NCBI RefSeq assembly: GCF_000002075.1
Contig: NW_004797332.1
Span: 1,562,618 to 1,626,617 of the forward strand
Reading direction: 5' to 3'
Length of the DNA: 64,000 nucleotides
Origin: Aplysia californica
Taxonomy: Eukaryota
Part shown: in pieces, positions 32,301 through 63,839 of the stretch
Layout: each line of letters begins with the position of its first letter
How positions within the stretch are numbered: position 1 is the stretch's first letter
Made by a program: the position numbers and the translations under genes
Notes under the pieces: generated by a model
The model's input: only the letters and a program-made list of their open reading frames with translations
Told to the model about the DNA's origin: nothing
Databases searched by the model: none

Positions 32301-35300
32301 TAACCCCCACCCATATTTTTTTCTCAAATTTTAATAATCTTTTTCTTTACATCTAGGTGGAGTGGATGGTTGGCGGGTGCTATAGTGTCGTTTGCTCCTT
32401 TTTCCTATCAAACATCTATCGTCCTGATCTCTCCTCCTTTTTTGTGTTTGTTACTCTCTTGTAACACCTCTAATCTCTGGCACTTATATGACCTTATTGT
32501 GTTGCAAGTTCCGTAAAACTCTTACTAAAACTATTTTTTAAAAACAACCTAGGTGGAGGACCTTCCCTCGAGTGTGGATCGTCTCCGAGAGTTGAGAGAA
32601 GCAGAAGCGACCGCCACACTGAGTCAGGTGGAGGAATACCTCAAGACGTCCCCTCCTGAATCACCACCTATGAGGAAAAGAACGGACGCATCACCAAGTC
32701 GCGTGACCATCCCCCCAGCACTACGCACAAGCTCCCCGATTGGCAGGCCAGGGTCACCGTCCAGAAGGTCACGATCGCCATCCCCCAGAAGGTCAAGGTT
32801 GCCAGGGAGCGGTTCTGGTTCGTCAGCAAGGATGAGTCCAAGACGATCATCATCCCCATCTAAAGTCGCCTTAGACATCATGGATGGAAGAGGTGACTAG
32901 CATTAGGAACATTGTGGCTCAGTTCTTTAGGACAGACCTCCCTCTTGGCTTGAATTAATTGAAACATTCCTTACACTTGGCGAGGTTGGAGGGTGCCATA
33001 TATAGGTCCTACTTCTTTTCTTTCTCTCTGTTGTTTCTTTCTGTCACTCTTACTTTTTCCCAGCACTAAATGACCATAATTATTATTGTGTCAATGTGTT
33101 TCTCTTTACCCAGACTCGGACACTTTCTCCTTTTTGGTCTCTGCTCGGATTGTTTTTCATCATGTTCCAATTTAATAGTTTCCATGACACTCTGAGAAAG
33201 ATGGCACTTATTGTTTTTGTCAAAACAAACTTTTAGAAATTACTGGGCACAACAAGGTATGGATTGCAAAACGCATAGAGCTTACTGTTGAGTGGGGATA
33301 TGTGCTATGCAAAATGCTATTTTTTCTTTTATTATTTATTCTTATTATTTGCATCCAGCAGTGGAAGGACAGTGCTTGGACCATTGTACTGCAGTAGTAT
33401 CTTTTGTTTGTCTTTCTTGCTTCATTGCCTTGTTGAACAACAGTGTGGATGGTTGGTGGGTGCTCTGGTGTGGTTTGCTCCTTCTTTAACTATCAAACAT
33501 CTATCGTCCTTATCTGGCAACACCTTCAGTATTTGGCACCTATATGACCTTATTGTGTTGCAAATGCTGTAAAACCCTTATTAAACTAAGCAGAACAATA
33601 ATCAATGTGCTGATGCGCTTTTCAGTATCTCAACTGACAAACATTTGTTTGTGCTCGTTGACAGAGTCTCCGCGACATGACCTTGGGGATCTCGAGCGCT
33701 CGGCAAAGATTGATGTCCTCATGGAACAGCTGGTGGAGTCACTGGACGACTGCAACGTCAAACTGGCCAGGCTGGAGGCAACCATGAGGTCCCAGGGCTC
33801 TGATGCTGAACACATGGTGAGTTGTAGTGAGGGGAAATTGTCGTTTTGTTGTGGTATGATCAGACAGAACATAAATATGGTGAGTTATAGTTAGGGTAAG
33901 AGTTATAGTTAGGGTAAGAGTTATAGTTAGGGTAAGAGTTATAGTTAGGGTAAGAGTTATAGTTAGGGTAAGAGTTATAGTTAGGGTAACTGCCATTTGT
34001 TAAGCTATGGTCAAAGATCTTGCCACTGATGCAGAACAGATGTTGAGTTGTATTAGGGAGAACCACCATTTGTCATAACATTAATATCCTCTCCCCCGCT
34101 TTTCTCCTGCTACTACAGATGCAGCTGATGGTGGAGTGTGAGGTGGCGGTGGACAATGTGCGGAGACTGGACCGCCTGCTCAAGACAGAGACCAGGGTGG
34201 ATGTCATTGCCAGCGCTGATGCAGAAGTCAGATGTAAGCTTTTCATCTGGTTTTTTGGGGGTTTTTTGCTCCTTAAGTGGTCAGGCTCCCTGAATCGCAA
34301 CCCTAAGTCGTGGGTTCCAATCCTGTCAGGGCCCAACTTTGTGTCCTTGGGAAAGGCACTTTGCACAAATTCCTCACTCCACCCAGGTGGGAATGAGTAC
34401 CCAGCTATAGACAGCGAAAGATCTTGTCAGTTTGATAGTGTTTGAGCGCTTAATCAGCTGCTTGCATTGTATGTTTCCTGGGGAGCTGGGAATGTCTCTG
34501 AGTGTTCTATGGTCTGCTGAGGTAATAATATAGTGTAAAGCTTGCTGTTGAGCGTGGGTATGAGCTATACAAATGCTATTTATTATTATTATGCATCTAA
34601 TCTTTGTCTAGTGTTGTTTTATGTTCTTATTTACCTTTTTTCTAGTACTTTGATTGGATTTCTTTAACTCCTTTTTAACTCCCAACTGTTCTGATTTCAT
34701 ACTATTCCTCTTTAGAAGAATTGTCACCCATGAAAATATGAATAACCTACAAATCTTCAAATTGATAGCGAGAAGTCATCTTAATTTGTAAATATGTATT
34801 AAATTTTACTTACTACGTAAATTTTTAGATGAAAATATTTTAAGAGTGTTAAAGGAGCTTCTTACTAGAAAGATACATATATCTTGTAAGTGAACTGTTA
34901 GGCTAATGCAACGACTGATGATTATCAAGAGTCTCTGGAGACAACAATCAACCAAAAAAAAAAAAAAGATTCAACCTCCCAAGAAAGGGACCATGTTAGA
35001 AAGAATAGGTGCATTTGTTTAAAGTAGTCAAATGTGAGGAGCCAGAAGAAAATCAGTCGGATCTCACTAGTCCTGGAGCTAAGATATTACCAAACGGAAT
35101 GAAAATATTTGTTTAGAATGGAAAATGAGTTACTTGCATAATGAAATACTCCAACATCTTATTTAAGTGTTCTGAAAAAAAAATACTTGAAAAACAACTA
35201 GAAATGTGTTTTTAAACGATTTCTTAACATGTTGGTGAAAATGGAATGTTCTGACTTCAAACCCGGATTTCTCGCAACTGAGTACCAGGGAGATGACTGG

Positions 35301-38300
35301 CTTAATATGCTTATATCTTAGCTTCTAATTAACATATTTCAAGTCAGCAAACTCCCATTTACTCAAGAGATATTGAATATCTGATTGTTCATATTGCTAT
35401 TTTCACAACTGTTTGATTTTCCCATAGCACCTTGGGTGTATCTGACTGTGAAAAGGGAATTGATTAACTTAATAACTATAATTAATCATTATACATTATA
35501 TTTTGTGCAGTGGTGATACAGAGGTGGGAACACCTACAGAGGCGAGCCCTAGACCAGGACTTGAAGGTATCCCAGGAGAGACATGACCTGGTCCAGTTTG
35601 CCGGCGAGCTGGACAATATGCTGGCCTGGCTGGACGAGGCGGAGGCTTTGCAGGCCACCCACCGCACGCTCCCGTCGGACATCAGCCAGCTGGACAGAGT
35701 TGTCAGGCAGTACAAAGTGAGTATGATTAGAGACAGTTGTCAGTCAGTGTGAAGTGAGTATGGTGAGAGACAATTGTCAGACAGTGTGAAGTGAGTATTT
35801 TGAGAAACAATTGTCAGACAGTGTGAAGTGAGTATGGTGAGAGACAATTGTCAGACAGTGTGAAGTGAGCATGGTTAGAGACAATTGTCAGACAGTGTGA
35901 AGTGAGTATGGTTAGAGACAATTGTCCGACAGTGTGAAGTGAGTATGGTTAGAGGTGATATTTTGACTAGGTACAATTGTCAGACAGTGTGAAGTAAGTA
36001 TGGTTAGAGACAGTTGTCAGACAGTGTGAAGTGAGTATGGTCAGAGACAATTGTCAGACAGTGTGAAGTGAGTATGGTTAGAGACAATTGTCAGACAGTG
36101 TGAAGTGAGTATGGTTAGAGACAATTGTCAGACAGTGTGAAGTGAGTATGGTTAGAGACAATTGTCAGACAGTGTGAAGTGAGTATGGTTAGAGATGATA
36201 TTTTGACTAGGTACAATTGTCAGACAGTGTGCAGTGAGTATGGTTAGAGACAATTGTCAGACAGTGTGAAGAGAGTATGGTTAGAGACTGTTGTCAGACA
36301 GTACAAAGTGAGTATGGTTAGAGACAATTGTCCGACAGTATAAAGTGAGTATGGTTAGAGACAATTGTCAGACAGTATAAAGTGAGTATGGTTAGAGACA
36401 ATTGTCAGACAGTATAAAGTGAGTATGGTTAGAGATGATATTTTGACTAGGTACAATTGTCAGACAGTGTGAAGTGAGTATGGTTAGAGATGATATTTTG
36501 ACTAGGTACAATTGTCAGACAGTGTGAAGTGAGTACGGTTAGAGATGATATTTTGACTAGGTACAATTGTCAGACAGTGTGCAGTGAGTATGGTCAGAGA
36601 CAATTGTCAGAGAGTGTGAAGTGAGTATGGTTAGAGACAATTGTCAGACAGTATAAAGTGAGTATGGTTAGAGATGATATTTTGATTAGGTACAATTGTC
36701 AGACAGTACAAAGTGAGTATGGTTAGAGATGATATTTTGATTAGGTGCAATTGTCAGACAGTGTGAAGTGAGTATGGTTAGAGACTTCGTTACCTCAAAT
36801 TACAAAGCACTCTCTGACATATTTGGCCGTTTTGAGTTACTAGGACAATGAGGTCAGAAACCAAATGTTCAATCTTCTTTATAAAAATCATAAGATTATA
36901 CAGAGTCATTATCAAGATATTCAAAGAACTGCATGCTTTTTAAGAACTGCATGCGAAAAAGCTTGACATGATGTGAAACTCAAAATCTTTTACATCAAAT
37001 TTCTCAAAGCTAGGTAGGCCTACTGAGCAGACAGAACTTTGTAATTCTGAGACAGCGACTTGTCAGACAGTGCAAAGTGAGTATCATATTTTAACTCGGT
37101 AGAGATACAATATAACACAGTCTTTTACCAAATCACGCTAAATAAGCTTTGAATGAAGACACAGAGAACGAAAATATAAGTGACATCATAACTTCCTTTT
37201 CCCCAGGACTTCCTGGTCCAGTTAGAGTCCAAGAAGAGCACAGTAACATCGATCAATTTGCTCAGTCGTAACTACCTCAGTATGAAAACGGCAGAAACAA
37301 GACAGCTGAAGGCAAAACTGAATGAGATGAACCAACGGTGGGAACTTGTTCTCACCAGAGCCACAGATATCCAGAGAGATCTACAGGTAAGACGTTTGAT
37401 CTTCCAACAAGGCAAAGGCAGCCAGTAGAACTGTTATCTGCATACTCAGTACCAGTAATCGCACTAGTTAAAGTTATCATGGTGATTTATAGTTTGAGTT
37501 TGTCGCACTGGCTGAAGATAAAACACAAGTTGCTAATGCTTTGAGTAAATCTAACAGTTAATCTTCCTTTTCAGAGTGTGTAAATAATTTGTAAACAATA
37601 AACTAGGAAACAGAGTTGAATTCCGCTGAAAGAACAAGAATTTGTGAGTCCCAAGAATATGAATTGGTTTAATAAATCTATCAATTACTCAACAACTTTA
37701 TCCCCTTGTAAGTTCTATGCGTCACTGTATGGAAATGAACTGAAGCCTTGTCCATTCTCACACTTTCTCTATTTTGTGTTCAGCGATCGCTGATACAGTG
37801 CCAAGAGTTCCACCACACCATCCATGACTATCAGTTGTGGCTCGAAGGAATCGAGGCCAAAGTCCGGCAGTGCGAGGCCATTCCTCCCAACGCAGAGGAG
37901 TCTGCTCTCTGGGCCAAGTATGCCATACTCATGGTAAGTTCAGGACACAATATTCTTTGTGTTAATGGCTTTGATTACACAGTCAACCACGCACATAGTG
38001 AAATTGGCAGCGAGGCAAAAACCTTTTCACTATGTACGAATTTGGCTGGGCACATGTTTTAAATACAAAGAATATAACGCATTGGAAAAAAATCTGTTCG
38101 TTGTATGCGTGCTAGATCGTATATTTGGCTTCCTTTTCATAGTGAGATTTTATTTTTCAGGGTAAGGTAGAAGTCACTTCTTGTTCTCCAGGTGATCTCT
38201 TGNNNNNNNNNNNNNNNNNNNNNNNNNNNNNNNNNNNNNNNNNNNNNNNNNNNNNNNNNNNNNNNNNNNNNNNNNNNNNNNNNNNNNNNNNNNNNNNNNN

Positions 38301-41300
38301 NNNNNNNNNNNNNNNNNNNNNNNNNNNNNNNNNNNNNNNNNNNNNNNNNNNNNNNNNNNNNNNNNNNNNNNNNNNNNNNNNNNNNNNNNNNNNNNNNNNN
38401 NNNNNTCTTTCCCTCTTTCAATTGTTCTCTTTTGCCCCCTCTCCTATACCACTTAAAATTGTAATAAGTCACCTCATTCAGCTTGTAGTTTATATCTTCC
38501 CTCTTTTTCTCTCTACGTCTTTACAAAACAAGGATCTGAACGGGGAACTGCTTCACAAACAAACCAAAGTCTACGCCCTCAAAGAAACCGCAGACCAACT
38601 GCTGGCCAGCACCGACTCGCCCGAGATGTCAACTGCTCGTGATAGCGCCCTCATCATCAACAACCGTCTCGGCGATTTGCTGCATCTGACATCTGGTTAT
38701 TTGTCTAGTCTCGAGACTCGTCTGCATATCACACCCAAGCGAGGAAACACAGTATGTATAAAGTTTGTGTACATGAATAATACACTGTATGTACTCGTCT
38801 ATAACACGACCTTGGGTATAATATCAGGGGTATACTTTGTCTCCAAAATAAATTGGCCCACTTTTGTAAGTTTTATGTAAGTTCTATGTATAGCATAAGC
38901 TGAATTTCTGATTTGATGTAGGGGATTCAACATGCTGGAAATCCAGTACTAGTGTGGCATCAAATATATGTCTGACTTTTAAGAAGTGTTGGTTGTTGCA
39001 TAGAGATTGATTTAATCTGTGAGAATGGGGTGGCAGGTAATCCAAACAAGACGTCATGATGTGTTGTAAAATCCAGATTTGTAAATAAATCAGATGAAAA
39101 AGTACATGGCATTACTTCCCCTTAGTTGGGCTGGATCCTGGTTGTGTGTCACACAAACAAAACGATGGGGGGGGGGAGTATTTTTGTGCTCCTTTTTTTG
39201 GAAAAACTGCTTGTATTATAGTGGAGTGTATACGTTAATAGTAATGTATTTGTGAGCTCTGGTGGCTGAGTGGCTACTGACTACTGAGCTTAGGCTCATA
39301 GTACTGTCAAGCATGTGTGGGTGATGAAGCGTTCAGGTGATGGGTGTTCTTGAACAAGGCAGGATTCAATAGCTCATCTGTCAATGTCACAACGATGACC
39401 AATATATCCACAGAGGAGAATATTTCTCAGTGAAATAGAAGAATTTGAAGGACTAAAGGTTAAGATGACTTGTGGCTTCTGCTGTGGACCAATTCTTGCA
39501 GAGAAAAGTTTGCCACATTTTGAGCATTCAAAACTCCACTTCCACCTGTATATGTGTGGATGTGCACAGTTTGCGGGCTTCTCTCTTAGTTTCAGCATTT
39601 GAGCAAGACATGACAACCCTAGTTCAAAAACAAGGTGCTGCACAGTGGCGATCAGCAGTGGTGTGTAGATTGTCTATGTTTGTGATTTTGTGTATTTTTT
39701 TTGTCTTTACGTATCATGAAGATCACCACTTGGTGTTTCCTATCCCTGAGAGATATATATACCTGCTACCCTACTGTGATCCCCATGGCAATTCCAGATG
39801 TTGCACACTGGGTCAAGTAGAAGAAAATGCAAGGGCTTTAGTTTATTTTTGCCCACTTTCATTTATATGTCACTATTGCAAAGTCATAACAAAAGCAGAT
39901 ATAATAAAAAATAATTATTATGTCATTAAATCGCCTGTTTGTTTACATTTGTGTGTTCATCAGCCGAGCAGTTTTGATCTGAGCGAGGAGAGGTCATCTG
40001 GGTTCGGCAGTTTAGCAGCCTCAAGGTCATCGACCCCTCACCGTCCAGGTCTTCCCACCACTGTCCGTAGGTCCCGATCACCGTATGCAATCGCCCGACA
40101 GGTAAACGCGAGAAAGATAAAGTAGATGTGCCAAACTCATATTTTATAGTGTGTGCCTTGTATCTGTAAGTAAGTGCCAATAGCCTTGTTTCTTTCTCTT
40201 TTTTTTTCTCTCTCGCAGTAGGTAAGTGCCGCCACCTGCCTTCTTTTCCAAATAAAGGCAATGCTTTTGTAATTGAAAGAGAAGAAATAGATTCCTTTTT
40301 TCTCTTGGTGGGATAGACACTGAGATATGTTTGTTGAATATTTCAGCTTTTATACAAATATCGTCTGTTTATGGTTAGAATAATGTTGTATTTGTCAACA
40401 CACACTCGTAAAAATTAATTGATATTTCTTCATACTATGTTGTTGATTATATGAAACAGTGGAAGTACAGTAAGCATGGAACGTGTCTGTATCTACCTAT
40501 ATTATATATATTCATTTATTCTGTTATTTATTATATGATATATATTAATCTATTGAATTTCAAGATGCAAAAAAAATTCCCACTTTTAAAGTAATTGTTT
40601 GTAAAGAGGCGAAATAATCAAGTTTCTAATGTTTGTGTCTCTCAGTGATAGCACATCTTTTAGCTTTTGTTATCATGAGCACAACGAAAATCCTTAGTGG
40701 GCATTATCAAACAACTCTCAGTTTGATTATGTTTTGCTGTTTCATTATGGGTTGTTTTTTTTATTGGCTCAAGCTTACTGTCCTGTGTAAAAGGCTTACC
40801 CTTTCCTCCTTTTGATTTTGTCTCATTTAATTGTTCAAAATGTATTTTGGAAAATCTTGTATTCCTGCTGCACACAAAACAATATGTGTTTTTGCCGTGC
40901 ACTGCGGCAATGTGAAAAAGACTTCACCACTGAATTTGTGTAATGGGGAGCATTAGCAGACAAATATGTACTGCTTTTTTGTGTGACAAACTAACATTTC
41001 ATTCTAATTATTGGTTGTTTTTTTCTCTCTGTTAAGACGTATCCTATGAAAACAAGAGTCGGTTTCCAGAACGTTCTTTTCTAAGTTCATACCATATGAG
41101 TATGCTAAAGGTCTACACAAACAGTTTTAGTGAAACGATAAATTAAAAGTAATTTAAAAGACTCAAGATTCTATCAGACTTTGACTGATCCTGACTTCCC
41201 TGTACTATTTTACTTTTTGTTTAATCCGAGTACTTAAGACTTTTTGGAGATTTTGACAAAAGATGCATCCTTCAACCTGCCTTTGATGTTGATTAGATCT

Positions 41301-44300
41301 GTTATGTGAAGATTGAATCATTTTTTGGTACCATACATAGCCCAAGATTACTGCAACAGTTTTGTTTTCTATAGTAAAATTTATTTTTTTTCAATACCTG
41401 TCTAATGTAGATATAATCAACATTTTCATTGCTAGTAGACCTTTGTGCTATTTTTACAACTGACATGAGTTCACATTATGTCTAACAGTTTCTGTAATGC
41501 ATCAAAGAATGTCCTTCCTGGACAATGTGGTGGATTCAGTCTTGATGCATTAGACCATCATCACTCTTATATTCTTAGTTTCTAATAACTTTTTGACTTC
41601 TTGAAAAGATAAACAGGCCTTATGTTACCACATCCAATAACTGTGCTATGATCTATTAATTGTCAAGCATACTGTATTTCTAAATTTTATCCTAATTTCT
41701 TTCATGCTAAAGTTTCTGTACCATATATTTATCACTTTTAGTTTGTAGGCGTTTCCATTTTTTAATTTAATTTTTGTTTCTCTTTTCAGTCAATTTATCT
41801 TCAGTTTTAATTTCATTTCTTTTATATATGTATTTATTTTGAAGTCAGTTTGTCTTGAGCACATCTTCACCATTGTCCTTCCGACATTTCACCTCATTCC
41901 CATGATGCTTTTGGTCCACAGTTTCTAATGAGAATCGCAAGTCCTTTTCTACCATCGAGCTCACAGGATAGAGACAAGTAAATCAATGTCGCACCCCTCA
42001 CTTGTTAACGGGGGGATCGACAAAAGTTTTTCCCTAATTTTTTGTTCATTTTTTGTTGGTTCTATCCCTTCACTGTCTCTCAGGCGGCAGGGTATGCCCC
42101 TTGTATGGAATGCGGGAGATTTAGCTAAAGAAATAATTATTTCACAGCTGTCACTTCATTTCATACCATGTACCAGTTCACCCATGGCCGTTGCCTCATT
42201 GCTCATCGCTTTGCCTGACTCTAGCCGCTTATCTCCTTTTTTTATGTTTTGAGAGTGCATCTTACATGGAAATGTCAAGTGCATTCTCTCTTCATGTGCA
42301 TGATGTATGTTGTTCTTGTCCCCCACTTAAGAGCATCGTGCAGAACACTGAAACGGAGAGCAGATAATAATTTTCTTTTCTTTTTTTTTTTTGGACTGGA
42401 ATATTTTCTCATTTTTATACTTTTTTAATGCAATAGTCGTATTTCTAAAGGAGCTGGGATTTTTGGGGGCCTGAAATACAATTTATTGTTCTCATATTTA
42501 AAGGTTGTTTTTTTGCTTTTTGTGTGGGGGGGGTTTTCTCTTATACCATTTGTCTATATTTCAATTTAATAAGTAACTTATTTCTTTCTTTTACCTTTTT
42601 TCAATTTTTTATTTGTGTTTCATTACTTCAGTATGGGGTCCATCTTTTTTTTCCCAAGTCAAGATATGTTGCACTTCTCTCCAGTTTTCAGGGTATCAAA
42701 AATGCTCTTTAACATCACTCACCTGAATAACCCTGGGGAAATAGCGTCCTGGGCAGTGGGTGGATGCTCACATCTAACAGCATGAAGCGCAAAAAGCACC
42801 TCGTACTCAGTAGGAAAATAATGCGAATAGAATGAAATCTTGTACATGTTGGTCATGGGGGCTTATTTCTGTGTAAAAAATGGATTAGTTTGTAGGGATA
42901 ATCCATCAACTAACAGTAATTACCCTGTCCCTTTCCTTTCCTTGACTTCCTTGACCTAAATAAGCTACCCAGTTCCTTTTAACAAATGACAGTAGTTAAC
43001 TAAATGATTTGAAACCTGGCCTTCTTTGTACTCTCTCTGTCCTTGTAACTGTCTTGTCAATAGCTCTTCCCGTCAGAGATAACAAACCTTAACCCATACT
43101 GCCTTTTTGTCTCCCTTGCCTATAATTTCTCACCCTGATCTGTGCCTTATTCCATCTCAGTCTGTCTTTTATAGACAAAAACGTCCAAACATGATTTTCA
43201 TAGTCAAAGCATCAGGAAAGTGGGTCATTGAGATTTCTAGGTAAATAAATTATGTGTGTTCATCAGCCTTAATGATAACATTGAAGTCTTTTTTGTTTTC
43301 CTTCCACACAAAAAAACAACTTTACCAGCAACATGAACTATGTCAAAAAATGTTTTCATAAAGAGACATTTTGGTTTACAATTTACAGCCATTTAAAACA
43401 GATGTGGAGCAAAGTTGATGCTGGATTACATTTTTGGCGTGTGATTATACATTCCTTTCCAACCCCCCCCCCCCTTTCCCTGTTACTCTCTTTAAATTCA
43501 AAGTGTACACCCATAAAAAAAAAAAAAAATCTTCAGCATGCTGCAGTGATGGGATTAGTCCTATTTAAGTTTTAAAAAACAATTGGCCCACCTTGACTAA
43601 CAATGGCTTACCACCACGTTACAAAATTGTGCAAATGCATCAACAAATTTCCAAGTTTTAACAAAGAACACCATTATGGACTGAATTAAGAAAACACATG
43701 AAATCTGGAAGTTTTGGGATCTTTTCAACAATGTGATAAATGACTCGGGCCATTATCGCAGCATGTTGAGGACATCCTTTATTTATTTTATTGCAACCGC
43801 AATTTCTTAAAGTTAAGGCTTTCAGTCACTTTTTTTTTAACCCCAAGAAGCAAAAGTATTGGTTCTCTCCAAAGCTATGTGCTTAACCTCATCCTTTCCT
43901 CCTTAAGACTTGCGTTGATCAAATCTTATGTGCTTTGCTTTAGTAATATAAATTGAAATAAGCCTACATATTAAATGTGTATACCAATCAACAACAGTCT
44001 ATATAATTTAATATAAAAAGCTGCTACTATAATAATCTGTAGCACAGTATCACACGCTTATGCTTTGTTGAAATCTTGTCTTGTCGTGCAAAAATTAGGC
44101 TTTGTAAAGTTGCACAAAGCCAAAATCAGCACAGAATTATTTCAAGAACTCAATCAAATTATTATATTCGTCGTAAGCCCAGGAAAAGCATTTGCTCCCA
44201 GGTCTCCATTTGTTTTGCCATCCATAGGTAGTTGGAGGGCATCTCTGAAAGGCCCTGGTTCTCTTCTTTCTCTCTGTTATTTCTGTCTGCCTATCTGTTT

Positions 44301-47300
44301 TCTCCATGCTCTAAATGGCTGTTGCAGGTGGTGTGTGGGTGGTGTGCGGGTGTTCTGGTGTGGTTTGTTCCTTCTTTCCTATAAAAAATCTATTGTCCTT
44401 ATCTCTCTTCCCTTTTTGTGTTTGTTACTCTCTTGTAACACCTCTAATCTTCAGCACTTCTAAGACCTTATTGTGTTGCAAGTGCCGTAAAACTCTTACT
44501 AAGGGACTGGATGGCTGCTGTCTTGTCAGCATGTTTTTCTTTCTCCAATTCTTCAACTCAGTGCTTTCCCAGTACCCGGTATACAAATATTTCATCAGTT
44601 CCATTCTAGGTAAAAATCCCTGTTTGTGTACGTTCAAAAGCAGAGCACTTTGCCCAGTACATGGAAAGAGCAAAAGAAAAAAGAAAAGAAGGAAATGCAA
44701 ATAAAGTTAACTGCACATGTATAGTCACATCTGATCATCGGTGGATATTTTTTTTTTTGTCAACAAGTTGCCTTCCCTGCATTATAGGTTTAATACAAGT
44801 ACTTATTATTCCGTTGTCAGACAGACTGTTGTGGCAAGTGTTGTTTGCTGCTCATCAACTCTTTCTACATACGGTGTCTTTCCTGGTGCCTTCCTAGTGT
44901 CTTCCATTGTCTTTTTAAAATTTTATACATTGCTCGTTCATTCTATGTCATCGTACAACACTTACATTCTACTGCTGATGTCCAGCCGCACATCAGCCTA
45001 CATCTGCAGCCCAGCTGACTTAAAAGGCGAGAGGGATTTTGTCTCGCGCATTATGTGTTATTTTTTTTTTATGTAATCTAAAATTTTCTGTGGTTTTCAA
45101 TAGGTTCATAATTTTTTTGCAGTATAGTCTAAGTGATTTTAATGAATGAAAGACTTGGAAAGATCTGCAATTTTTTTTTTATGTGTGTGACTGCAGAGTA
45201 AGTCTACTCATATATAATTTAAATGACTGTGTATTAACTTTTACTTTGTGAAAAGAAAAAAAAAGGACGTAGAAGACTGACCTGGCCATCGTCAAGAGAT
45301 ATCAGGATCAAGACCTAACTCAGCAAAAGCTACTAATTTGGCACAATATAACTGAATTGACACTCGACCTTGAAGAGCAAATATGTTTGATTTTAAAGGT
45401 CAAAGTCGAATTAACCACATCCAGTAGAAGTTGTACCAGAAGGGCAACTGTTGCCCCATCTATGAAGGAACATTTGGCCAACACTAAATAATTATTTGGG
45501 GTTTTGGCTTTTTTTTTAAAGAAAAAATTGATACCCTCAGATGATGTGCGTTCGTTTTTCTTGTTAAGTAAATCTGTTGTCCTGCAATCTTTTTTTTTTA
45601 CCCACATATATGTGTCTGATCCCAGTGTCTTAAATACGTGTTGTGTATTGAATGCAGTTGTATGTTTTTGTTTAGGAGGTGAGGTGGGTTGTTTGTTGTT
45701 TGGGTTTGTTTGGGTTTTGGGAGGATTTTTTTATGGGGGCGGGGATGGAGCTGTTGTTGTTTTTTTAGTTTAGTTTTTTGTTTTTTGTTGGGGGGGTTTT
45801 TTTGGGGGGGAAGGGAGAGAGAGAACAATATTCTGGCACTGGTTCATTTATACTAGTATTTTGGGGTTAATTTCCCACATCTACACTGGTTTGCCAAAGG
45901 TCAAGAACCTTTAGTGCAGACCTGTTTTATCCCATTCATTCCAGGTTGACCCTGTTGGTGGTTGGTTTTGCTCCGATGTGGTTCTCTCCTTATCTCTCCT
46001 TCTTTTTTGTGTTTGTTGCTTTCTTGTAACACCTCTAATCTTCAACACTTATATGACCTAATTGTGTTGCAAGTGCCGTAAAATGCTTACTAAAACAAGG
46101 TTGTCCATATCAGATAGGGGGGATGCTTCACTTCTCATATAAATTGTACCGTGCCAATAAAGTAAAACATATTACAGTTGGTGAAATCGCTACCATTGTT
46201 CAACATGGTTACAAACTACAGAGCTTTTGCTTCGAGTGGGTGGTTGGTGGGTGCTCGGGTGTGCCTTTCCTATCAAACATCTAATGTCCTTATCTCATCC
46301 TATTCTGTTCTCTGTATGTTACCCCCTAGTAATAGTAACACTTCTAGTCTTCGGCACTGATATGACTTACATGTATTATATTTGTGTTTCAAGTGCTGTA
46401 AAACTCTAACTGAAAATAGAAAAGTTAATTCATGACAACTGTACAGCGCTACTCATAAGTGTTTATAGGAAGAGGGAACAGAACTAGCCAGCCCACTGAA
46501 GTAGAAATAAGCTCTTCGGACGACTGTGTTTAAAAGTGAAGCTTTTTTTTCTATTGTTCATCTTTGCTCATTCTGTTTATTCATCCCATTTCTCCATTGT
46601 TTGTGAAATGTTTTTGAATGGCTATGATTAGAATCTAAACCTATAATGTCAGTTTATAGAAAACGAAAAGACAAAATTGTAAAATACTATTGTATTTCCT
46701 CTAGAATGTGGTTCGTGGCGGGGGTTTTTTCGGGGTTTTTTTTGTTTTTACGTGTTTTCAGTTTGAAGACACTGATCAAAAAGGGAAGAAAAGAATCGGG
46801 GAATTCTATTTTTGTTCTGTTGACTACTTTTTTTCGGATTTACAGTGTTCGGTTTTAGGGGACTCCACAGTATTTTCACAGTTTCCTTTCATTTTAAGTT
46901 GTTGAGCAACAATTTAGAAATCTAAATAGTGATAGTCCCAATTGATTTGTAAATTTATTCCAAGGGGATTGAATAAGATATAGAGGATTGGTCTATTTCC
47001 AAATCCTTGAGGGCAACCCTTATGCCTGTGTTGCTCTGTATCACTTGGTTTATTTTGTTCACATCTACTCAGTCTTAACATCTTTCATTATTATTTCCTG
47101 GCATCTCTTCCATGCGTGCTCATTCAAAGCAGTGCAGCATTACGGTGTGCTCACGTGGTATTTCTTACTAACTATAGTCTTTTTGTGCTGACCTGTGTTG
47201 TCTCTTCGTGCTTCGGCAGGGATGTTGATTCCTCTCGATGTTGCTGGACTCCAAGTTTATTGTAACTCACACAGTTTGCCATTTCTATTTTGTAAATAAC

Positions 47301-49175
47301 TTATTTGTGTAGGCTGTAGAAATATTTCAGGTATCTCTCGTGACTTTAGAATTTGTCATCGTTGCTTTGTAGCGTACTTTTTATGTTTATGTATATTCGT
47401 GTTTTAAAACATTCGTATACATAGATCTGTGCATACATGTGGACATGTTATCTCTTTGCAGATCTTTCTTTGGTTATAGAAGCTGCTGTATGAGTGTCTG
47501 CTTACAAATAAGATTACATGAATATCATAGGCTATCTATCAGTGATGTTCTTCTTGCTTTGTTTAGTTTGCAAAAGTCCATTATATATGTCTCTATGTAG
47601 GCCTACTTGTATCCTGCACATGAAGACAAGCACATTCATGACAATAATTTTCCAGCTTCGGCCTTACTGACACTCAGTGCCAAGATGTACTCTCATGGGA
47701 CAACTGGTTATGGAAAAATTGTAAACAGTCGGAATCTACCTTTCCTTTTCAGTTCTGCCATCATTTTCTAAAGTACAGTTTTTACAGTTTCACAGGAGAG
47801 TCAAAATTCGAATGCTATTACCGAGAAAACAATTGTATTTGCTTTAAAGATCACAAGGAAGTTATCAAAATTGTATTCTTAAAAATATTGACTTGAGATG
47901 TTTGCAAAGAGTTTGTTTTTTTGGTAATATCATTCAGTTTTTTTACTCCTGTAAAATTGTACAAATCAGGTCAACGTTCAAATGCATATACTGCGTTTAT
48001 TAAAGGACAACAGAGTTGCTCTGTAGACATAATTTTGTGTGTTTCTGTGAGTGTAGACGAATGATCCCGTATTCTATGAACTGAAAATAATCCCAAGTCT
48101 TTAAATATTTGAGTTAACGTTATTATGATAAGGGGGTCATGGAGATTGAAGAATACATAATGCATTCCGTTTTCTGCATCATTAAAGTTTGAATGTTTCC
48201 CAGCCCTGCAAGGTTTGACTATAACTATAACATTAGACAGCCGATGGATAGACTGAGCGGGGTTGTGTTACTCAGTACATTTTTTTGCTTCTTTTCTTTT
48301 CTGGAATATCGGTACTTTCATGGTCTCATGGTGTTAATATATACAATGTTATTTGATTTACAAGAAAACTGTGATATATTAAGTTCACTCAGTTTGTAAC
48401 TTGTAAGCAACTTTATGGGTGGTAGTCAGGGTTACAAAGTATTTTAGTACCAAAAACCCATCACATTATGTTAACATAATATCCTTCGGTTCTAATAATG
48501 ATAACCCACCATATTTTGCATGCTTCACAGTTTGCATGGCTTGCACATGTTTTGGAGTCAAATTGTTAAGTTAATAGTTGTATTAAGAATATTTGTACTC
48601 ACTATACATACTCATATTTGAATAGATGGAACTACCTAAAAATTTGTAAACACATTGTGTATTACTTAATTGAAATGATGATAAGTTATTTTGTCAAGCG
48701 TTAAATTAGTTCAAGTAAAGGTTTGAGTTTGAGTTATCAGGGCTGTCACATACTTTTTACCAAAAACTTAATGCAAACAAAAGAACAGACGTGAACTTCA
48801 AAAAGATGAGTAACCAGTCTCAATGTTTTCTTCTCATCACCAAATCAAATTCCTCTGTAGTGCAAGATTAATGATACAGGTACAATGGAGCTGTTTTAAA
48901 TTTCAGTATGTTGTTTTTTTTATTTCCACAGTTTGAGTACAGATCATGAGACCGCAAGAGAAGTTTCGGCGCTCACAAAATCTCAAGTCCGTCCATCGTT
49001 ACTTATGCGTGTAATACGTGCTGCCCTGCCTATTCAACTGCTGTTACTACTGTTACTTCTCTTAGCCTGTCTTGTTCCTGTGTGTGAAGATGAGTACAGC
49101 TGCCTGCTCAGTAATAACCTGCGACACTCCCTCTCTCCAATGTTGCGATACACTGATGGGGCCCCACCCACCTAG
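627..49175 (+). CDS. SYNE1: Nesprin-1-like giant KASH protein (SYNE1/MSP-300/ANC-1 family), 3' portion; 46 exons, 5'-incomplete
   Basis: 46 GT-AG exons with consistent phases sum to 8331 nt and read as one open frame of spectrin-repeat sequence. Segments such as ELQEDIERHSAGVSSVLNLCEVLLHDSDAC, WRNICSLSPQRRTRVEETWRMW and LELINRQYRQLAKEGRTD closely resemble the vertebrate nesprin-1 C-terminus (recalled, not aligned). Ends in TM + KASH. Confidence 0.95.
879..1310. mobile_element. MITE family C (~40-bp imperfect TIRs)
   Basis: ATATGTG..GAAATCAGGCGCTC / GAGCGCATGATTCC..CACATAT; homologous to 31712-32157 and 58063-59851. Confidence 0.75.
1833..2137. mobile_element. piggyBac-like MITE (TTAA flanks)
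   Basis: TTAA|CTCTTTATCT ... AGATATAAAG|TTAA; second copy at 2411-2685. Confidence 0.7.
2223..2384 (+). CDS. SYNE1: nesprin exon w2 (EAKKDQEK..DENR)
   Basis: gtcag|GAG..AGG|gtaaga; phase 0/0. Confidence 0.88.
2411..2685. mobile_element. piggyBac-like MITE, second copy
   Basis: TTAA|CTTTTTATCTCCG ... CGGAGATAAAAA; colinear with 1833-2137. Confidence 0.7.
3131..3259 (+). CDS. SYNE1: nesprin exon w3 (EIQEEING..VHLQ)
   Basis: tttcag|GAA..CAG|gtaaac; phase 0/0. Confidence 0.88.
3706..3926 (+). mobile_element. tRNA-derived SINE; related copies on the minus strand near 51740-51900, 52960-53165, 54195-54345
   Basis: TGGTGTAGTGG A-box and GAGTTCGATTCC B-box, followed by a non-tRNA body repeated elsewhere. 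Confidence 0.7.
3970..4182 (+). CDS. SYNE1: nesprin exon w4 (TELGQFKL..DIHK)
   Basis: cacag|ACG..AAG|gtaagt; phase 0/0. Confidence 0.88.
4736..4933 (+). CDS. SYNE1: nesprin exon w5 (ELATDIKQ..RKPG)
   Basis: ctcag|GAG..GGG|gtaagg; phase 0/0. Confidence 0.88.
5000..5190 (+). mobile_element. Penelope-like element terminal-repeat remnant (boundaries approximate)
   Basis: Carries the minimal hammerhead typical of PLE pseudo-LTRs, followed by an ATAAAA/T-rich segment. Confidence 0.45.
5058..5094 (+). ncRNA. Minimal type-I hammerhead ribozyme motif (Penelope-like element type), possibly inactive
   Basis: GTTC-CTGAGGA-T-GCCC(gttga)GGGC-GAAA-CATT-GAAC: stem I GTTC/GAAC, CUGANGA and GAAA core, 4-bp stem II; stem III looks 2 nt short. 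Confidence 0.65.
5495..5671 (+). CDS. SYNE1: nesprin exon w6 (ELVKISLH..QQYQ)
   Basis: tacag|GAA..CAG|gtatgt; phase 0/0. Confidence 0.88.
6333..6428 (+). CDS. SYNE1: nesprin exon w7 (SALQNVSGW..RQNE)
   Basis: cccag|TCC..GAG|gtgtgt; phase 0/0. Confidence 0.85.
6916..7230 (+). CDS. SYNE1: nesprin exon w8 (KLQKEIRS..SNNQ)
   Basis: tacag|AAG..CAG|gtcagc; phase 0/0. Confidence 0.88.
7337..7523 (+). repeat. (CT)n-rich simple repeat next to a gap
   Basis: Direct reading. Confidence 0.9.
7524..7741. other. Assembly gap (others at 38203-38405 and 63639-63811)
   Basis: Runs of N; the first two are intronic and flanking exon phases stay compatible. Confidence 1.
7782..7928 (+). CDS. SYNE1: nesprin exon w9 (KIEVQLKK..LHRR)
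   Basis: tctag|AAA..CGG|gtaagg; phase 0/0. Confidence 0.88.
8205..8430 (+). repeat. ~28-bp minisatellite (~8 copies) running into a splice acceptor
   Basis: AAATTCAACCATGTCTTTTTCACACTCT-like units. Confidence 0.85.
8443..8613 (+). CDS. SYNE1: nesprin exon w10 (AMEKKASL..TAHK)
   Basis: tccag|GCT..AAG|gtgagt; phase 0/0. Confidence 0.88.
9120..9274 (+). CDS. SYNE1: nesprin exon w11 (DFFSDLEV..HGQ)
   Basis: cccag|GAC..AG|gtcagt; phase 0/2. Confidence 0.88.
9920..10063 (+). CDS. SYNE1: nesprin exon w12 (LERLTRQW..KLA)
   Basis: accag|A..AA|gtaaga; phase 2/2. Confidence 0.88.
10325..10511. mobile_element. ~190-bp MITE family A (CAGTCAAAC-like ends); other copies near 155-330, 1358-1550, 4188-4390, 22920-23360, 56200-56390
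   Basis: Shared core TTGTCTTAGACAGGTGGA.TCTTGGACA.TGTCATT and end CAGGTT(T/C)GACT in six places, both orientations. Confidence 0.7.
10615..10788 (+). CDS. SYNE1: nesprin exon w13 (YKQLQAEL..ELK)
   Basis: ttcag|A..CG|gtgagt; phase 2/2. Confidence 0.88.
12332..12494 (+). CDS. SYNE1: nesprin exon w14 (TETLGDQL..EKVL)
   Basis: ctcag|G..CTG|gtatgt; phase 2/0. Confidence 0.88.
13055..13381 (+). CDS. SYNE1: nesprin exon w15 (EFKKEVEG..KKYK)
   Basis: tacag|GAG..AAG|gttagt; phase 0/0; in-frame alternative acceptor 60 nt upstream. Confidence 0.87.
13788..13976 (+). CDS. SYNE1: nesprin exon w16 (GYKIELSS..ATLE)
   Basis: tccag|GGT..GAG|gtatgg; phase 0/0. Confidence 0.88.
14719..14859 (+). CDS. SYNE1: nesprin exon w17 (SLQSKWGD..KDCK)
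   Basis: gacag|AGT..AAG|gtgagt; phase 0/0. Confidence 0.88.
15045..15267. mobile_element. MITE with 25-bp inverted repeats
   Basis: GTGCTGACAAAATGAGTTACTTCTC ... GAGAAGTAACTCATTTTGTCAGCGC (24/25). Confidence 0.75.
15450..15639 (+). CDS. SYNE1: nesprin exon w18 (ALQQQLQA..NLLT)
   Basis: cccag|GCC..G|gtgtgt; phase 0/1. Confidence 0.88.
16097..16239 (+). CDS. SYNE1: nesprin exon w19 (MFGQWARY..DKLK)
   Basis: cccag|AC..AAA|gtgagt; phase 1/0. Confidence 0.88.
16335..16567 (-). mobile_element. RTE-clade LINE 3' fragment
   Basis: Minus-strand translation TTGKFDRKEGRGRQRE..KWRSMIAHASRQGTG* plus (GAT)n tail parallels the element at 62683. Confidence 0.75.
17162..17328 (+). CDS. SYNE1: nesprin exon w20 (GLQSELRN..LSD)
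   Basis: caaag|GGC..AG|gtgaga; phase 0/2; an in-frame CAG acceptor 9 nt downstream (start 17171) is an alternative. Confidence 0.8.
17911..18070 (+). CDS. SYNE1: nesprin exon w21 (CAKFEGCL..SKSK)
   Basis: tgcag|G..AAA|gtaagg; phase 2/0. Confidence 0.88.
18609..18833 (+). CDS. SYNE1: nesprin exon w22 (KLQKELDN..NAFE)
   Basis: catag|AAA..GAG|gtaaag; phase 0/0. Confidence 0.88.
19535..19698 (+). CDS. SYNE1: nesprin exon w23 (LVKKFLDQ..NDL)
   Basis: ctcag|CTT..GG|gttagt; phase 0/2. Confidence 0.87.
19708..19815 (+). repeat. (AAT)n-like microsatellite
   Basis: Direct reading. Confidence 0.9.
19921..20078 (+). mobile_element. SINE fragment (Nin/Deu-domain-like) with a stem-loop 3' tail
   Basis: GGACATTAAAGATCCCTTGGTGGTC motif; tail GTGCTC-ATATGACC..GTTGC-GAGCGC similar to family B. 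Confidence 0.45.
20334..20577 (+). CDS. SYNE1: nesprin exon w24 (YRLALNEA..RKCK)
   Basis: tctag|G..AAG|gtgagt; phase 2/0. Confidence 0.88.
21387..21713 (+). CDS. SYNE1: nesprin exon w25 (QFENEMYS..EKVK)
   Basis: tccag|CAA..AAG|gtaaga; phase 0/0. Confidence 0.9.
22755..22862 (+). CDS. SYNE1: nesprin exon w26 (TTQYEFKL..AEIK)
   Basis: ctcag|ACC..AAG|gtaatg; phase 0/0. Confidence 0.88.
23564..23776 (+). CDS. SYNE1: nesprin exon w27 (NTLDQLQR..NKCR)
   Basis: atcag|AAT..AGG|gtagat; phase 0/0. Confidence 0.88.
24468..24664 (+). CDS. SYNE1: nesprin exon w28 (DIATSFLN..AMF)
   Basis: tccag|GAC..AG|gtgagg; phase 0/2. Confidence 0.88.
25297..25414 (+). CDS. SYNE1: nesprin exon w29 (WTNLGERM..KLET)
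   Basis: ttcag|A..ACG|gtaagt; phase 2/0. Confidence 0.88.
25719..25885 (+). CDS. SYNE1: nesprin exon w30 (EYKEEMME..MDF)
   Basis: cacag|GAG..AG|gtaaga; phase 0/2. Confidence 0.88.
26349..26511 (+). CDS. SYNE1: nesprin exon w31 (QRKLQETV..HHTQ)
   Basis: aaaag|A..CAG|gtaaac; phase 2/0 (AAG acceptor). Confidence 0.85.
27282..27469 (+). CDS. SYNE1: nesprin exon w32 (ELQEDIERHSAGVSSVLNLCEVLLHD..RRT)
   Basis: tgcag|GAG..AG|gtcagt; phase 0/2; highly nesprin-like segment. Confidence 0.92.
27890..28040 (+). CDS. SYNE1: nesprin exon w33 (VEETWRMW..RKYE)
   Basis: tctag|G..GAG|gtatga; phase 2/0. Confidence 0.9.
29235..29399 (+). CDS. SYNE1: nesprin exon w34 (NLQKKVHD..RVTE)
   Basis: ttcag|AAC..GAG|gtaaga; phase 0/0. 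Confidence 0.9.
29783..29938 (+). CDS. SYNE1: nesprin exon w35 (IMKTLRHS..NEIR)
   Basis: ttcag|ATC..AGG|gtgagt; phase 0/0. Confidence 0.9.
30577..30777 (+). CDS. SYNE1: nesprin exon w36 (RIEDEVHT..MVAQ)
   Basis: cacag|CGC..CAA|gtatgt; phase 0/0. Confidence 0.88.
31060..31140 (+). mobile_element. Decayed LINE reverse-transcriptase fragment
   Basis: Translates VELQLADDVHLLACTKSEL*E, resembling the (Y/F)ADD region of non-LTR RT. Confidence 0.4.
31712..32157. mobile_element. MITE family C copy
   Basis: Colinear with 879-1310 over its full length. Confidence 0.75.
32363..32531 (+). mobile_element. Retroposon 3'-end family B (~170 bp); copies near 6623, 9357, 15924, 26765, 28056, 28383(-), 33386, 44334, 45955, 46234
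   Basis: Shared TCCTATCAAACATCT..GTAACACCTCTAATC..GGCACTTATATGACC..GTTGCAAGTGCCGTAAAAC..ACTAAAA; this copy is flanked by a 10-bp direct repeat. Confidence 0.8.
32553..32892 (+). CDS. SYNE1: nesprin exon w37, SP/SR-rich linker (adaptive-domain position)
   Basis: cctag|GTG..G|gtgact; phase 0/1, needed to join w36 to w38; acceptor is duplicated upstream at 32356. Confidence 0.82.
33665..33816 (+). CDS. SYNE1: nesprin exon w38 (SPRHDLGD..AEHM)
   Basis: gacag|AG..ATG|gtgagt; phase 1/0. Confidence 0.85.
33882..33989 (+). repeat. 18-bp minisatellite x6 (GAGTTATAGTTAGGGTAA)
   Basis: Six identical units, each containing TTAGGG. Confidence 0.95.
34119..34233 (+). CDS. SYNE1: nesprin exon w39 (MQLMVECE..EVR)
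   Basis: tacag|ATG..T|gtaagc; phase 0/1. Confidence 0.87.
34270..34592 (+). mobile_element. tRNA-derived CORE-like SINE with (ATT)n tail; truncated copies near 5990-6270, 22030-22105, 23035-23312, 33255-33350
   Basis: A/B-box-like head (AAGTGGTCAG..GGTTCCAATCC), CORE-like GTGTCCTTGGGAAAGGCACTT..CCACCCAGGTG, tail GCTATACAAATGC(TAT)n shared among copies. Confidence 0.75.
35511..35716 (+). CDS. SYNE1: nesprin exon w40 (VIQRWEHL..RQYK)
   Basis: tgcag|TG..AAA|gtgagt; phase 1/0. Confidence 0.88.
35699..36785 (+). repeat. Minisatellite, 37-bp and 55-bp units, ~26 copies, derived from an exon/intron junction
   Basis: Unit ATTGTCAGACAGTGTGAAGTGAGTATGGTTAGAGACA; the 55-bp variant adds ATGATATTTTGACTAGGT. 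Confidence 0.95.
36786..37058. mobile_element. MITE-like element; inverted copy at ~54460-54695
   Basis: Imperfect TIRs CTCAAATTACAAAG / CTTTGTAATTCTGAG; body matches the reverse complement of 54460-54695. Confidence 0.7.
37207..37386 (+). CDS. SYNE1: nesprin exon w41 (DFLVQLES..RDLQ)
   Basis: cccag|GAC..CAG|gtaaga; phase 0/0. Confidence 0.88.
37784..37933 (+). CDS. SYNE1: nesprin exon w42 (RSLIQCQEFH..AILM)
   Basis: ttcag|CGA..ATG|gtaagt; phase 0/0. Confidence 0.88.
38533..38751 (+). CDS. SYNE1: nesprin exon w43 (DLNGELLH..RGNT)
   Basis: acaag|GAT..ACA|gtatgt; phase 0/0 (AAG acceptor). Confidence 0.82.
39964..40101 (+). CDS. SYNE1: nesprin exon w44 (PSSFDLSE..IARQ), Ser/Arg-rich pre-TM linker
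   Basis: atcag|CCG..CAG|gtaaac; phase 0/0; SRSSTPHR resembles vertebrate SGRSTPNR (recalled). Confidence 0.82.
41922..41977 (+). CDS. SYNE1: nesprin exon w45, 56-nt bridging exon (FLMRIASPFLPSSSQDRD)
   Basis: cacag|TTT..AA|gtaaat; open frame that converts phase 0 to the phase 2 required by the KASH exon. Confidence 0.6.
48932..49175 (+). CDS. SYNE1: nesprin terminal exon: TM helix + KASH domain
   Basis: ttccacag|T; RVIRAALPIQLLLLLLLLLACLVPVCEDEYSCLLSNNLRHSLSPMLRYTDGAPPT* matches the KASH consensus (Cys -23, Pro -11, Tyr -7). Confidence 0.96.
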
Positions 49176-50310
49176 ACATTTTCTGAAAAATCTTATAAAA
49201 GTTTGGACCAAAAAAAATCAAACCCTCAAACCTGCAGCCACTTACTTTGAAATGAGATGGTTTTGCGAAAAGTGAATTCTTATTGCTTGCAAATCTTGAT
49301 CAATGTTGCGACAAGTGTACAGAAGTTTGTTTACCCATGTTACTTTCATTTCAATAATGCAAAATGATGTCTTCAATATTTACCGAAGCATTTCTTTCAA
49401 TTATTCTTACTTAAGAACACTGGTGCTAAAATTTGTTCTGAGTAGAGCCATACTCTATCTCAATTGATGGCCTTCTTTGGAAGCTTGAATGAAGGAGGTC
49501 GTCAATAGATTTCCACGAATGGGAACTTTTGACTGAATAACAGGGTCAAGACAAAAATTGTCATTCATTCCTTCTCAAAAGTAACCAATATCCGCTGTAG
49601 AATTTCCCCAAAACAACCTATATCCTGTAAACAGAATTTCCTCCTCGCGTGCATTTATTGAACCACCTTCCCCCAAAACTCAATCAAGTGTGAAAGAGAA
49701 GAAAGAAACATCAAAACATCAATGAGTAATTTCACTATATTTTTCTTGATCGTTGCTTTCACTGTCATGGTAACAGTAACAGTAGAACAGTTCTTGCTTT
49801 TGGAACAGAATGAACTGTGCCCATGAATTCAGTACTTCGTTTTTGCTCTTAGAGACTACTTTTAGGGGGGAGGTGGTAAAGGGAGGAGGAGAAAGTTAAT
49901 TATAAAGAAAAAGAAAAGTCAGCTTAAGATTTCCTTATACTCTAGTTCTCCTAGGAGAACTATGTCTCGTGTTCCTTCCAATTTTCTTTGCTATTTTTCC
50001 CTGGGGCTTTCCATATGTGTGTTCATAGACTGACCGGAGGTGTTCGCAATGTCATAGACTGACCAGAGGTGTTCGCATAGACTTACGATGGACATTCCCT
50101 CCCCCGAGTGTTGTGTATATATCACTGACAGGCAGCATGTATTTCATCTTTACACTTACTTTATGTATTTACACTGAGCTACAACTCTATATATATACAT
50201 TTAGAAGCAATATTATGTGCAGCTGTTTTTAATAACTCTATGTGACAATGAAAATGTGCCAGTCAAGATCCTTTCTTTGTCAAGTTTCGCTTACGTTTAC
50301 TTTGAGTCCT

Positions 50311-50649
50311 TTAACACTTACAGTGCTGAAGGTTCATATAGTGAAAAGCCCTCAAGTACCACATCCGTTTAGAATGCTGAAGCTGATTTATATTTTTTTA
50401 AATTAAAAAAACATTGGCAGCCCCAGAAACACGGTTTAAAAATTCTAAGAGGTTCATCAACCATTCAGTTATCATATAGGGTGACTGCCTTTGGTATTTA
50501 CTTCAGTTCAGTGCGTCTATTCTTTGTTTAATTATGTTTAGTGTACCTGGTTGCGTCAGCAACTAAAGTCACCAGCAGTCATGAGCGCTTACATATGTAC
50601 TAAGGCCTAGCGACTAAAGTCGCCGACGGTACGGTACTGTAAGTGTTAA
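50311..50649. mobile_element. piggyBac-like MITE in the nesprin 3'UTR
   Basis: TTAA|CACTTACAGTGC ... GTACTGTAAGTG|TTAA (11/12 TIR match, TTAA duplication). Confidence 0.8.
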
Positions 50650-63575: not shown

Positions 63576-63839
63576 AATGACATAATAATAAATAGCATAA
63601 CACACTGTAGGGGGCGTAGATAGAGAGAGAAAGAGCGANNNNNNNNNNNNNNNNNNNNNNNNNNNNNNNNNNNNNNNNNNNNNNNNNNNNNNNNNNNNNN
63701 NNNNNNNNNNNNNNNNNNNNNNNNNNNNNNNNNNNNNNNNNNNNNNNNNNNNNNNNNNNNNNNNNNNNNNNNNNNNNNNNNNNNNNNNNNNNNNNNNNNN
63801 NNNNNNNNNNNAATCGATTGGGGGCGGGGGAGGAGGCAA

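Follow-up and report, generated by a model that had tools for sequence, protein, structure and literature searches.

A conserved 56-nt exon and a probable KASH on/off splice at the 3′ end of a nesprin gene in Aplysia californica

A nesprin gene of Aplysia californica, whose 3′ portion lies in the 64,000-nt stretch of DNA analyzed here (the window), carries a probable KASH on/off splice run by a single conserved exon of 56 nt, a kind of switch known from human SYNE1 and new for molluscs. An mRNA without KASH exists in this species. We are highly confident in the reading that this mRNA arises by joining the linker exon w44 directly to the last exon, that the KASH-bearing form likely passes through the 56-nt exon, and that this exon likely shares an ancestor with exon 145 of SYNE1. 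The features discussed are listed in Table 1.

The window contains the 3′ portion of a spectrin-repeat gene on the + strand. There are 44 colinear exon-level matches to molluscan nesprins 5′ of the last exon, and the colinear matches span positions 600 to 49172 when Lymnaea P0039 and Plakobranchus P0036 are used as tblastn queries. The KASH domain in the last exon is complete (Pfam PF10541, 87.3 bits against a cutoff of 23, model positions 2–58 of 58), and the KASH protein has a transmembrane helix and a proline-rich end that terminates in APPT. The KASH region is 67.5% identical to that of Lymnaea over about 80 residues (tblastn). One of eight rod exons tested singly passed the cutoffs for Spectrin and Spectrin_SYNE1, and four further exons of the eight had Spectrin matches below the cutoff. 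A protein search with the KASH exon gave one match among 250 candidates, and the homologue searches with the KASH exon, w43, and the C-terminus of Elysia P0004 returned no protein of A. californica itself. Because the nearest named proteins are gastropod nesprins, we assign the gene by sequence to the gastropod nesprin-1/2 type; its 5′ part, which would encode the N-terminus with the calponin-homology domains of this type, lies beyond the window. Nucella (P0021 and P0028) and Candidula (P0001 and P0040) each have two distinct KASH nesprin-like proteins, possibly reflecting a gastropod duplication.

An alternative reading frame for w44 was rejected, as the other two frames contain stops and the homologues align in the chosen frame. 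The window has assembly gaps at 7524–7741, 38203–38405, and 63639–63811, the second of which is inside the intron before w43. Intronic tandem repeats occur at 33884–33990 and 35717–36790; the latter starts at a donor and repeats the donor-like GTGAGT many times.

Table 1. Exons, candidate exons, and untranslated region at the 3′ end of the nesprin gene (window coordinates).
Feature	Start	End	Strand	Remarks
Exon w43	38533	38751	+	Final spectrin-like helical exon; phase 0/0; matched by Lymnaea P0039 and Plakobranchus P0036 in tblastn
Exon w44	39964	40101	+	Ser/Arg/Pro-rich linker; 138 nt; phase 0/0; single open frame
3-nt TAG between strong acceptor and strong donor	40219	40221	+	Acceptor 73rd, donor 52nd percentile
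56-nt penultimate cassette exon	41922	41977	+	Predicted KASH bridge; phase 0 to 2
8-nt candidate microexon, unproven	42084	42091	+	Phase 0 to 2; acceptor 93rd, donor 19th percentile
66-nt candidate cassette	43175	43240	+	7th percentile at both splice sites
Last exon, coding part	48932	49175	+	Phase-2 start; transmembrane helix and KASH; APPT end
3′ UTR, common to both forms	49176	50400	+	Contig coverage reaches at least 50400, where the compared stretch ends

The end of w44 in phase 0 clashes with the start of the KASH exon in phase 2 (48932), and a direct splice between them loses KASH, as the earlier note on this DNA had pointed out. The direct splice reads five residues (FEYRS) and reaches a stop at 48947–48949, without KASH. 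The earlier note treated this splice as a path to be avoided, whereas both informative RNA assemblies retain it. The RNA evidence comes from four of 24 listed runs, compared over 38420–50400, of which two provided informative contig sets (X3 and X16). The raw-read runs X23 and X24 scarcely cover w43, w44, or the last exon, and a dispersed repeat is the source of almost all of their placed reads. X3 and X16 come from two different studies, are RNA by guess or unlabelled, and carry no tissue label; they are taken as spliced material because a GT..AG joint is present. In both sets, w43 is spliced to w44, and a joint with GT..AG borders connects 40101 to 48932 with no letters inserted between. This direct joint is the only exit from w44 among the joints listed in X3 and X16.

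In X3, one record of 10,990 nt joins w43, w44, and the last exon (depth 25.6), the last-exon record has a depth of 26.8, and the depth is 0 in every bin from 41620 to 43619. In X16, the record with the joint has a depth of 47 and the last-exon record 58.5; an unspliced record that terminates within the last exon has a depth of 8.56, and low unspliced coverage extends across the intron (about 2–9 outside repeats). The 56-nt exon was not found included: the depth over it is 0 in X3, and it takes part in none of the joints listed for X16. These depths are flat means over contigs that drop minor forms, with only part of the joints and pieces listed, and on this scale the KASH-less form is likely the major form in the X3 and X16 samples. 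In genes of this kind, KASH will be missed by gene models built on bulk RNA.

We rejected an assembly error as the source of the phase clash, because w43, w44, and the beginning of the last exon align gap-free to the contigs and relatives share the shift. At the start of w44 (39964–39966), X16 has three differing letters with the length unchanged, which is likely an allele. Read-through past the w44 donor (40102–40125) would add seven residues before a stop and is another possible KASH-less end, although the contigs show no sign of it.

The span between w44 and the last exon (8,830 nt) is the longest of the 42 mapped gaps, in agreement with the earlier description of it as unusually long. The other gaps measure 302–2,887 nt, with unmapped exons concealed in the larger ones, and with the 56-nt exon included the span splits into 1,820 and 6,954 nt. 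Among the molluscan homologues, 14 end in KASH, and 11 of these could be anchored on both sides and were used for bridge scoring; P0001 (no equivalents of w41–w44), P0011 (no usable anchor), and P0037 were left out. In all 11, a bridge of 15–20 residues separates the w44-like end from the first residues of the last exon. These bridges imply exons of 44–59 nt, with 56 or 59 nt in nine of the 11, where the junctions were placed by eye in nine homologues and most homologues are database gene models. One protein with such a bridge, P0018 (363 residues), comes from a 1,230-nt contig that is likely a transcript. A bridge-like stretch also occurs in P0037, behind a long insert.

Scored against the 11 molluscan bridge peptides, the 56-nt exon ranks first among 6,557 open 18-mers from both strands of the intron, with a score of 10.2 against a mean of −14.4 (sd 4.6, n = 6,557). 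It also ranks first among the 109 open AG..GT candidates that lead from phase 0 to 2, and none of 5,000 shuffles reaches its score. The peptide matches Lymnaea P0039 at 9 of 19 positions in an ungapped alignment, the final five being identical. Judged by these comparisons, the 56-nt exon is a conserved bridge. Its splice sites are weak to average (37th and 14th percentile, by weight matrices trained on 42 donors and 41 acceptors of this gene), and it is preceded by an AG-free zone of 60 nt. An acceptor at 41967, inside the exon, scores 11.1 bits compared with 6.2 bits for the exon's own and gives an 11-nt bridge (41967–41977) in the same frame.

Joining w44 straight to the last exon shifts the frame and ends the protein after the five-residue tail, so that the sequence for the transmembrane helix and KASH becomes part of the 3′ UTR. 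In the mechanism that we propose, inclusion of the 56 nt would carry the frame from phase 0 to phase 2, such that the helix and KASH would be translated. As a rule, a stop codon in the last exon does not lead to nonsense-mediated decay. Because translation of the skip form ends within the last exon, this form would be expected to escape decay, and it may act as a soluble spectrin-repeat scaffold. The inclusion form, by comparison with the human case, may join SUN proteins at the nuclear envelope. That splicing in the 8.8-kb span toggles the predicted KASH anchor is supported, because the skip form occurs in RNA-derived contigs and the 56-nt exon is conserved.

Two gastropods, one bat, and one shark have isoform pairs that differ in the presence of the bridge. 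When the codon compatibility of both proteins was examined over skips of 1–149 nt, one skip length fitted in each of the four species pairs: 56 nt in Pomacea (P0026/P0008) and 59 nt in Elysia crispata (P0124/P0038), the bat Rousettus (P0071/P0072), and the shark Carcharodon (P0113/P0116). The bat and shark skip leads from phase 0 to 2. The Aplysia gene resembles Pomacea canaliculata (XP_025103987/XP_025103988) and E. crispata (KAK3716922/KAK3716921), whose pairs are known from annotation alone, in the shared junctions with 56 or 59 nt skipped and in a five-residue tail with Tyr in third place (LNYRI and FQYQL in the gastropod pairs, FEYRS here). A cluster look-up among 10 further homologues yielded no new pair.

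Codon 6 of the last exon (48948–48950) encodes E, K, or D in all but one of 12 molluscan rows and so permits a stop in the skip frame at the same place in these 11, while neighbouring columns vary and the rows are kin. A dual-frame constraint at this codon is possible, the pattern being suggestive only. The skip-frame stop at codon 6 is known for three species.

For human nesprin-1, the available portions of Rajgor et al. (2012; PMC3388047) describe a skip of exon 145 that shifts the frame, keeps the 3′ UTR, and produces the tail VHKRWLRFLPF; this delta-KASH skip is present in all tissues tested, and a construct without exon 145 leaves the nuclear envelope. As far as those portions extend, the Aplysia arrangement is alike, with a small penultimate exon whose skip shifts the frame of the last exon, creates a short tail, and keeps the 3′ UTR. 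The exon geometry is also comparable, with phases 0 to 2 and a length of 56 nt here versus 59 nt in bat and shark. The last exon starts 25 residues before the RV.R motif here, 24–25 residues before it in three vertebrates, and 16–27 in other molluscs. On the other hand, the tail has five residues here versus 11–12 in the SYNE1 skip, and the skip is the retained path in both assemblies here, whereas most of the vertebrate C-termini compared carry KASH. By analogy, the 56-nt exon would work like SYNE1 exon 145, and we infer common descent of the two.

The likeness to vertebrates may also have arisen by convergence, with a molluscan switch that is real and independent in origin of vertebrate exon 145. 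If a transcript has its stop in the last exon, it can lose any small penultimate exon of 3n+2 nt and still be spared decay, and the bridge peptides of vertebrates and molluscs show no likeness (744–1,174 of 2,000 shuffles score as well). Moreover, human nesprin-2 obtains KASH-less forms by other routes, according to the accessible text of PMC3388047 and PMC11078644, and such forms would therefore seem to arise readily. However, the entry phase, the exit phase, the size of 56–59 nt, and the distance to the KASH helix are the same in both lineages, and we regard an independent origin as rather unlikely. When the linkers are aligned on an STP motif instead of KASH, the upstream junctions of molluscs and vertebrates do not coincide. 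Because this alignment displaces the upstream junction and the bridge peptides are unlike, the argument for shared ancestry is one of position, phases, and size only. With common descent as the preferred reading, the switch is perhaps as old as bilaterians. A bolder conjecture, to which we would give somewhat less than even weight, is that the penultimate switch was alternatively spliced in the ancestor of molluscs and vertebrates and kept for more than 500 million years in both, that an anchorless giant nesprin is the default in this snail, and that the 8-nt and 3-nt sites of the intron may add control.

Nesprins without KASH are a known theme with several routes in the sections available of the relevant literature (Duong et al., 2014, PMC3981789; PMC11078644; PMC11213522). 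SYNE2 delta-KASH1 and delta-KASH2 are described there as arising by a skip of exons further upstream or by read-through after the penultimate exon (PMC3388047; PMC11078644), and the gene MSP300 of Drosophila makes KASH-less isoforms as well as anchored ones (PMC11213522). To the extent of these sections, the Aplysia gene is like SYNE2 and MSP300 in deriving KASH-less and anchored nesprins from one gene. An LEWD-type motif was not found in the window or in four homologues.

The switch itself is not new, because the available text on human SYNE1 already sets out the mechanism (PMC3388047); what is added here is that the exon architecture and the skip product also occur in gastropods and a shark. 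A literature search, subscription papers and supplements aside, returned no account of molluscan nesprin splicing or of the conservation of the skip. Exon skips common to protostomes and vertebrates are uncommon, and conservation would therefore favour delta-KASH nesprin-1 as a selected isoform rather than splicing noise. If true, conservation bears on the role of KASH-less giant nesprins in neurons and muscle. The anchorless form seems to dominate in this snail, which would make the snail a handy study system.

A larger regulated module had been proposed in the earlier note, in which the 8-nt candidate is a second, exclusive bridge, the 66-nt candidate is optional, and RBFOX/QKI-type proteins choose between them by tissue. 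Its geometry holds: the 56-nt and 8-nt segments each lie between AG and GT, 106 nt apart, and either one alone restores the frame while both together break it. The count of two bridges was too low, as 109 open AG..GT candidates of 41–71 nt lead from phase 0 to 2 and the acceptor at 41967 adds the 11-nt bridge. Microexons are 3–27 nt long, with strong splice sites and a long polypyrimidine or AG-free zone. The 8-nt candidate corresponds in sequence to this definition, with an AG-free zone of 55 nt and a branch-point-like CTAAT 50 nt upstream, and it lies close to the conserved exon. It and the 3-nt TAG are the only candidates of 3–27 nt in the 8.8-kb intron with both sites at 8 bits or more, a threshold chosen after the scores were seen; scans of other introns (24,160 nt) and of the reverse strand (51,600 nt) yield none and one, respectively. 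Against this, the joint from w44 to the last exon in X3 and X16 has no inserted letters, no listed joint in either set uses the 8-nt site, an unspliced X16 contig runs through it, and a 3-residue bridge occurs in none of the 14 molluscan KASH proteins. We consider it doubtful that the 8-nt exon is real.

As had been claimed, the phase-2 frame is the only one open in the 66-nt candidate, but the candidate's splice sites are weak and of a quality expected by chance. Eight open phase-2/2 candidates in the intron, itself included, score as well or better, its peptide matches none of the 14 molluscan C-termini better than shuffles, and a 22-residue insert behind the bridge is absent from all 14 molluscan KASH proteins. 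The candidate is probably a chance pseudo-exon, and we give hardly any credence to its being a real exon. The five ACTAAC and TGCATG words that had been singled out are all present, but the two motifs are not enriched: ACTAAC was seen four times versus 1.9 expected (reached in 61 of 500 dinucleotide shuffles), TGCATG three times versus 2.9 (279 of 500), and ACTAAY five times versus 5.25. TGCATG is equally frequent in the upstream gene body, and its nearest copy lies 320 nt behind the 56-nt exon. No splicing regulator is indicated. What stands of the regulated module is the KASH toggle, with its skip contigs and conserved exon; the multi-exon RBFOX/QKI part is not supported, with motifs at background level and no sign of the 8-nt or 66-nt exon in the listed contig joints or the homologues, and we judge the module in its full form to be very unlikely. 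In a different reading, the exon is almost always skipped here, KASH is vestigial, and a paralogue supplies the anchoring. The skip form alone is seen among the joints listed in X3 and X16, and the two KASH nesprin-like proteins each of Nucella and Candidula would fit such a division. However, the KASH frame is intact, with its 67.5% identity to Lymnaea and 87 bits on Pfam, and the 56-nt exon retains its frame, splice sites, and conserved residues, which makes a relic exceedingly improbable compared with a working switch.

The long intron contains further sites. The 3-nt TAG (40219–40221) lies 117 nt behind w44, before GTAAGT, and is a candidate, as yet unproven, for an in-frame stop microexon, or, should the TAG serve as the acceptor, for a recursive splice site. 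Neither the X3 and X16 contigs nor the molluscan homologues support it. The motif on its donor side recurs about 50 nt upstream and resembles a short local duplication. An acceptor at 47220 (8.4 bits) has the branch-point-like words CTAAC (the ACTAAC at 47167) and CTGAC upstream and no good donor; downstream of it, all three frames close within 27 codons and the depth is at background. This acceptor could belong to an alternative terminal exon. The dispersed repeat, about 170 nt long, has three copies in the intron (44335–44502, 45987–46096, and 46236–46411) and others at 6641, 9365, 15922, 26763, 28056, 28391, 32362, and 33443, and appears SINE-like by its size and very high depth in the RNA runs.
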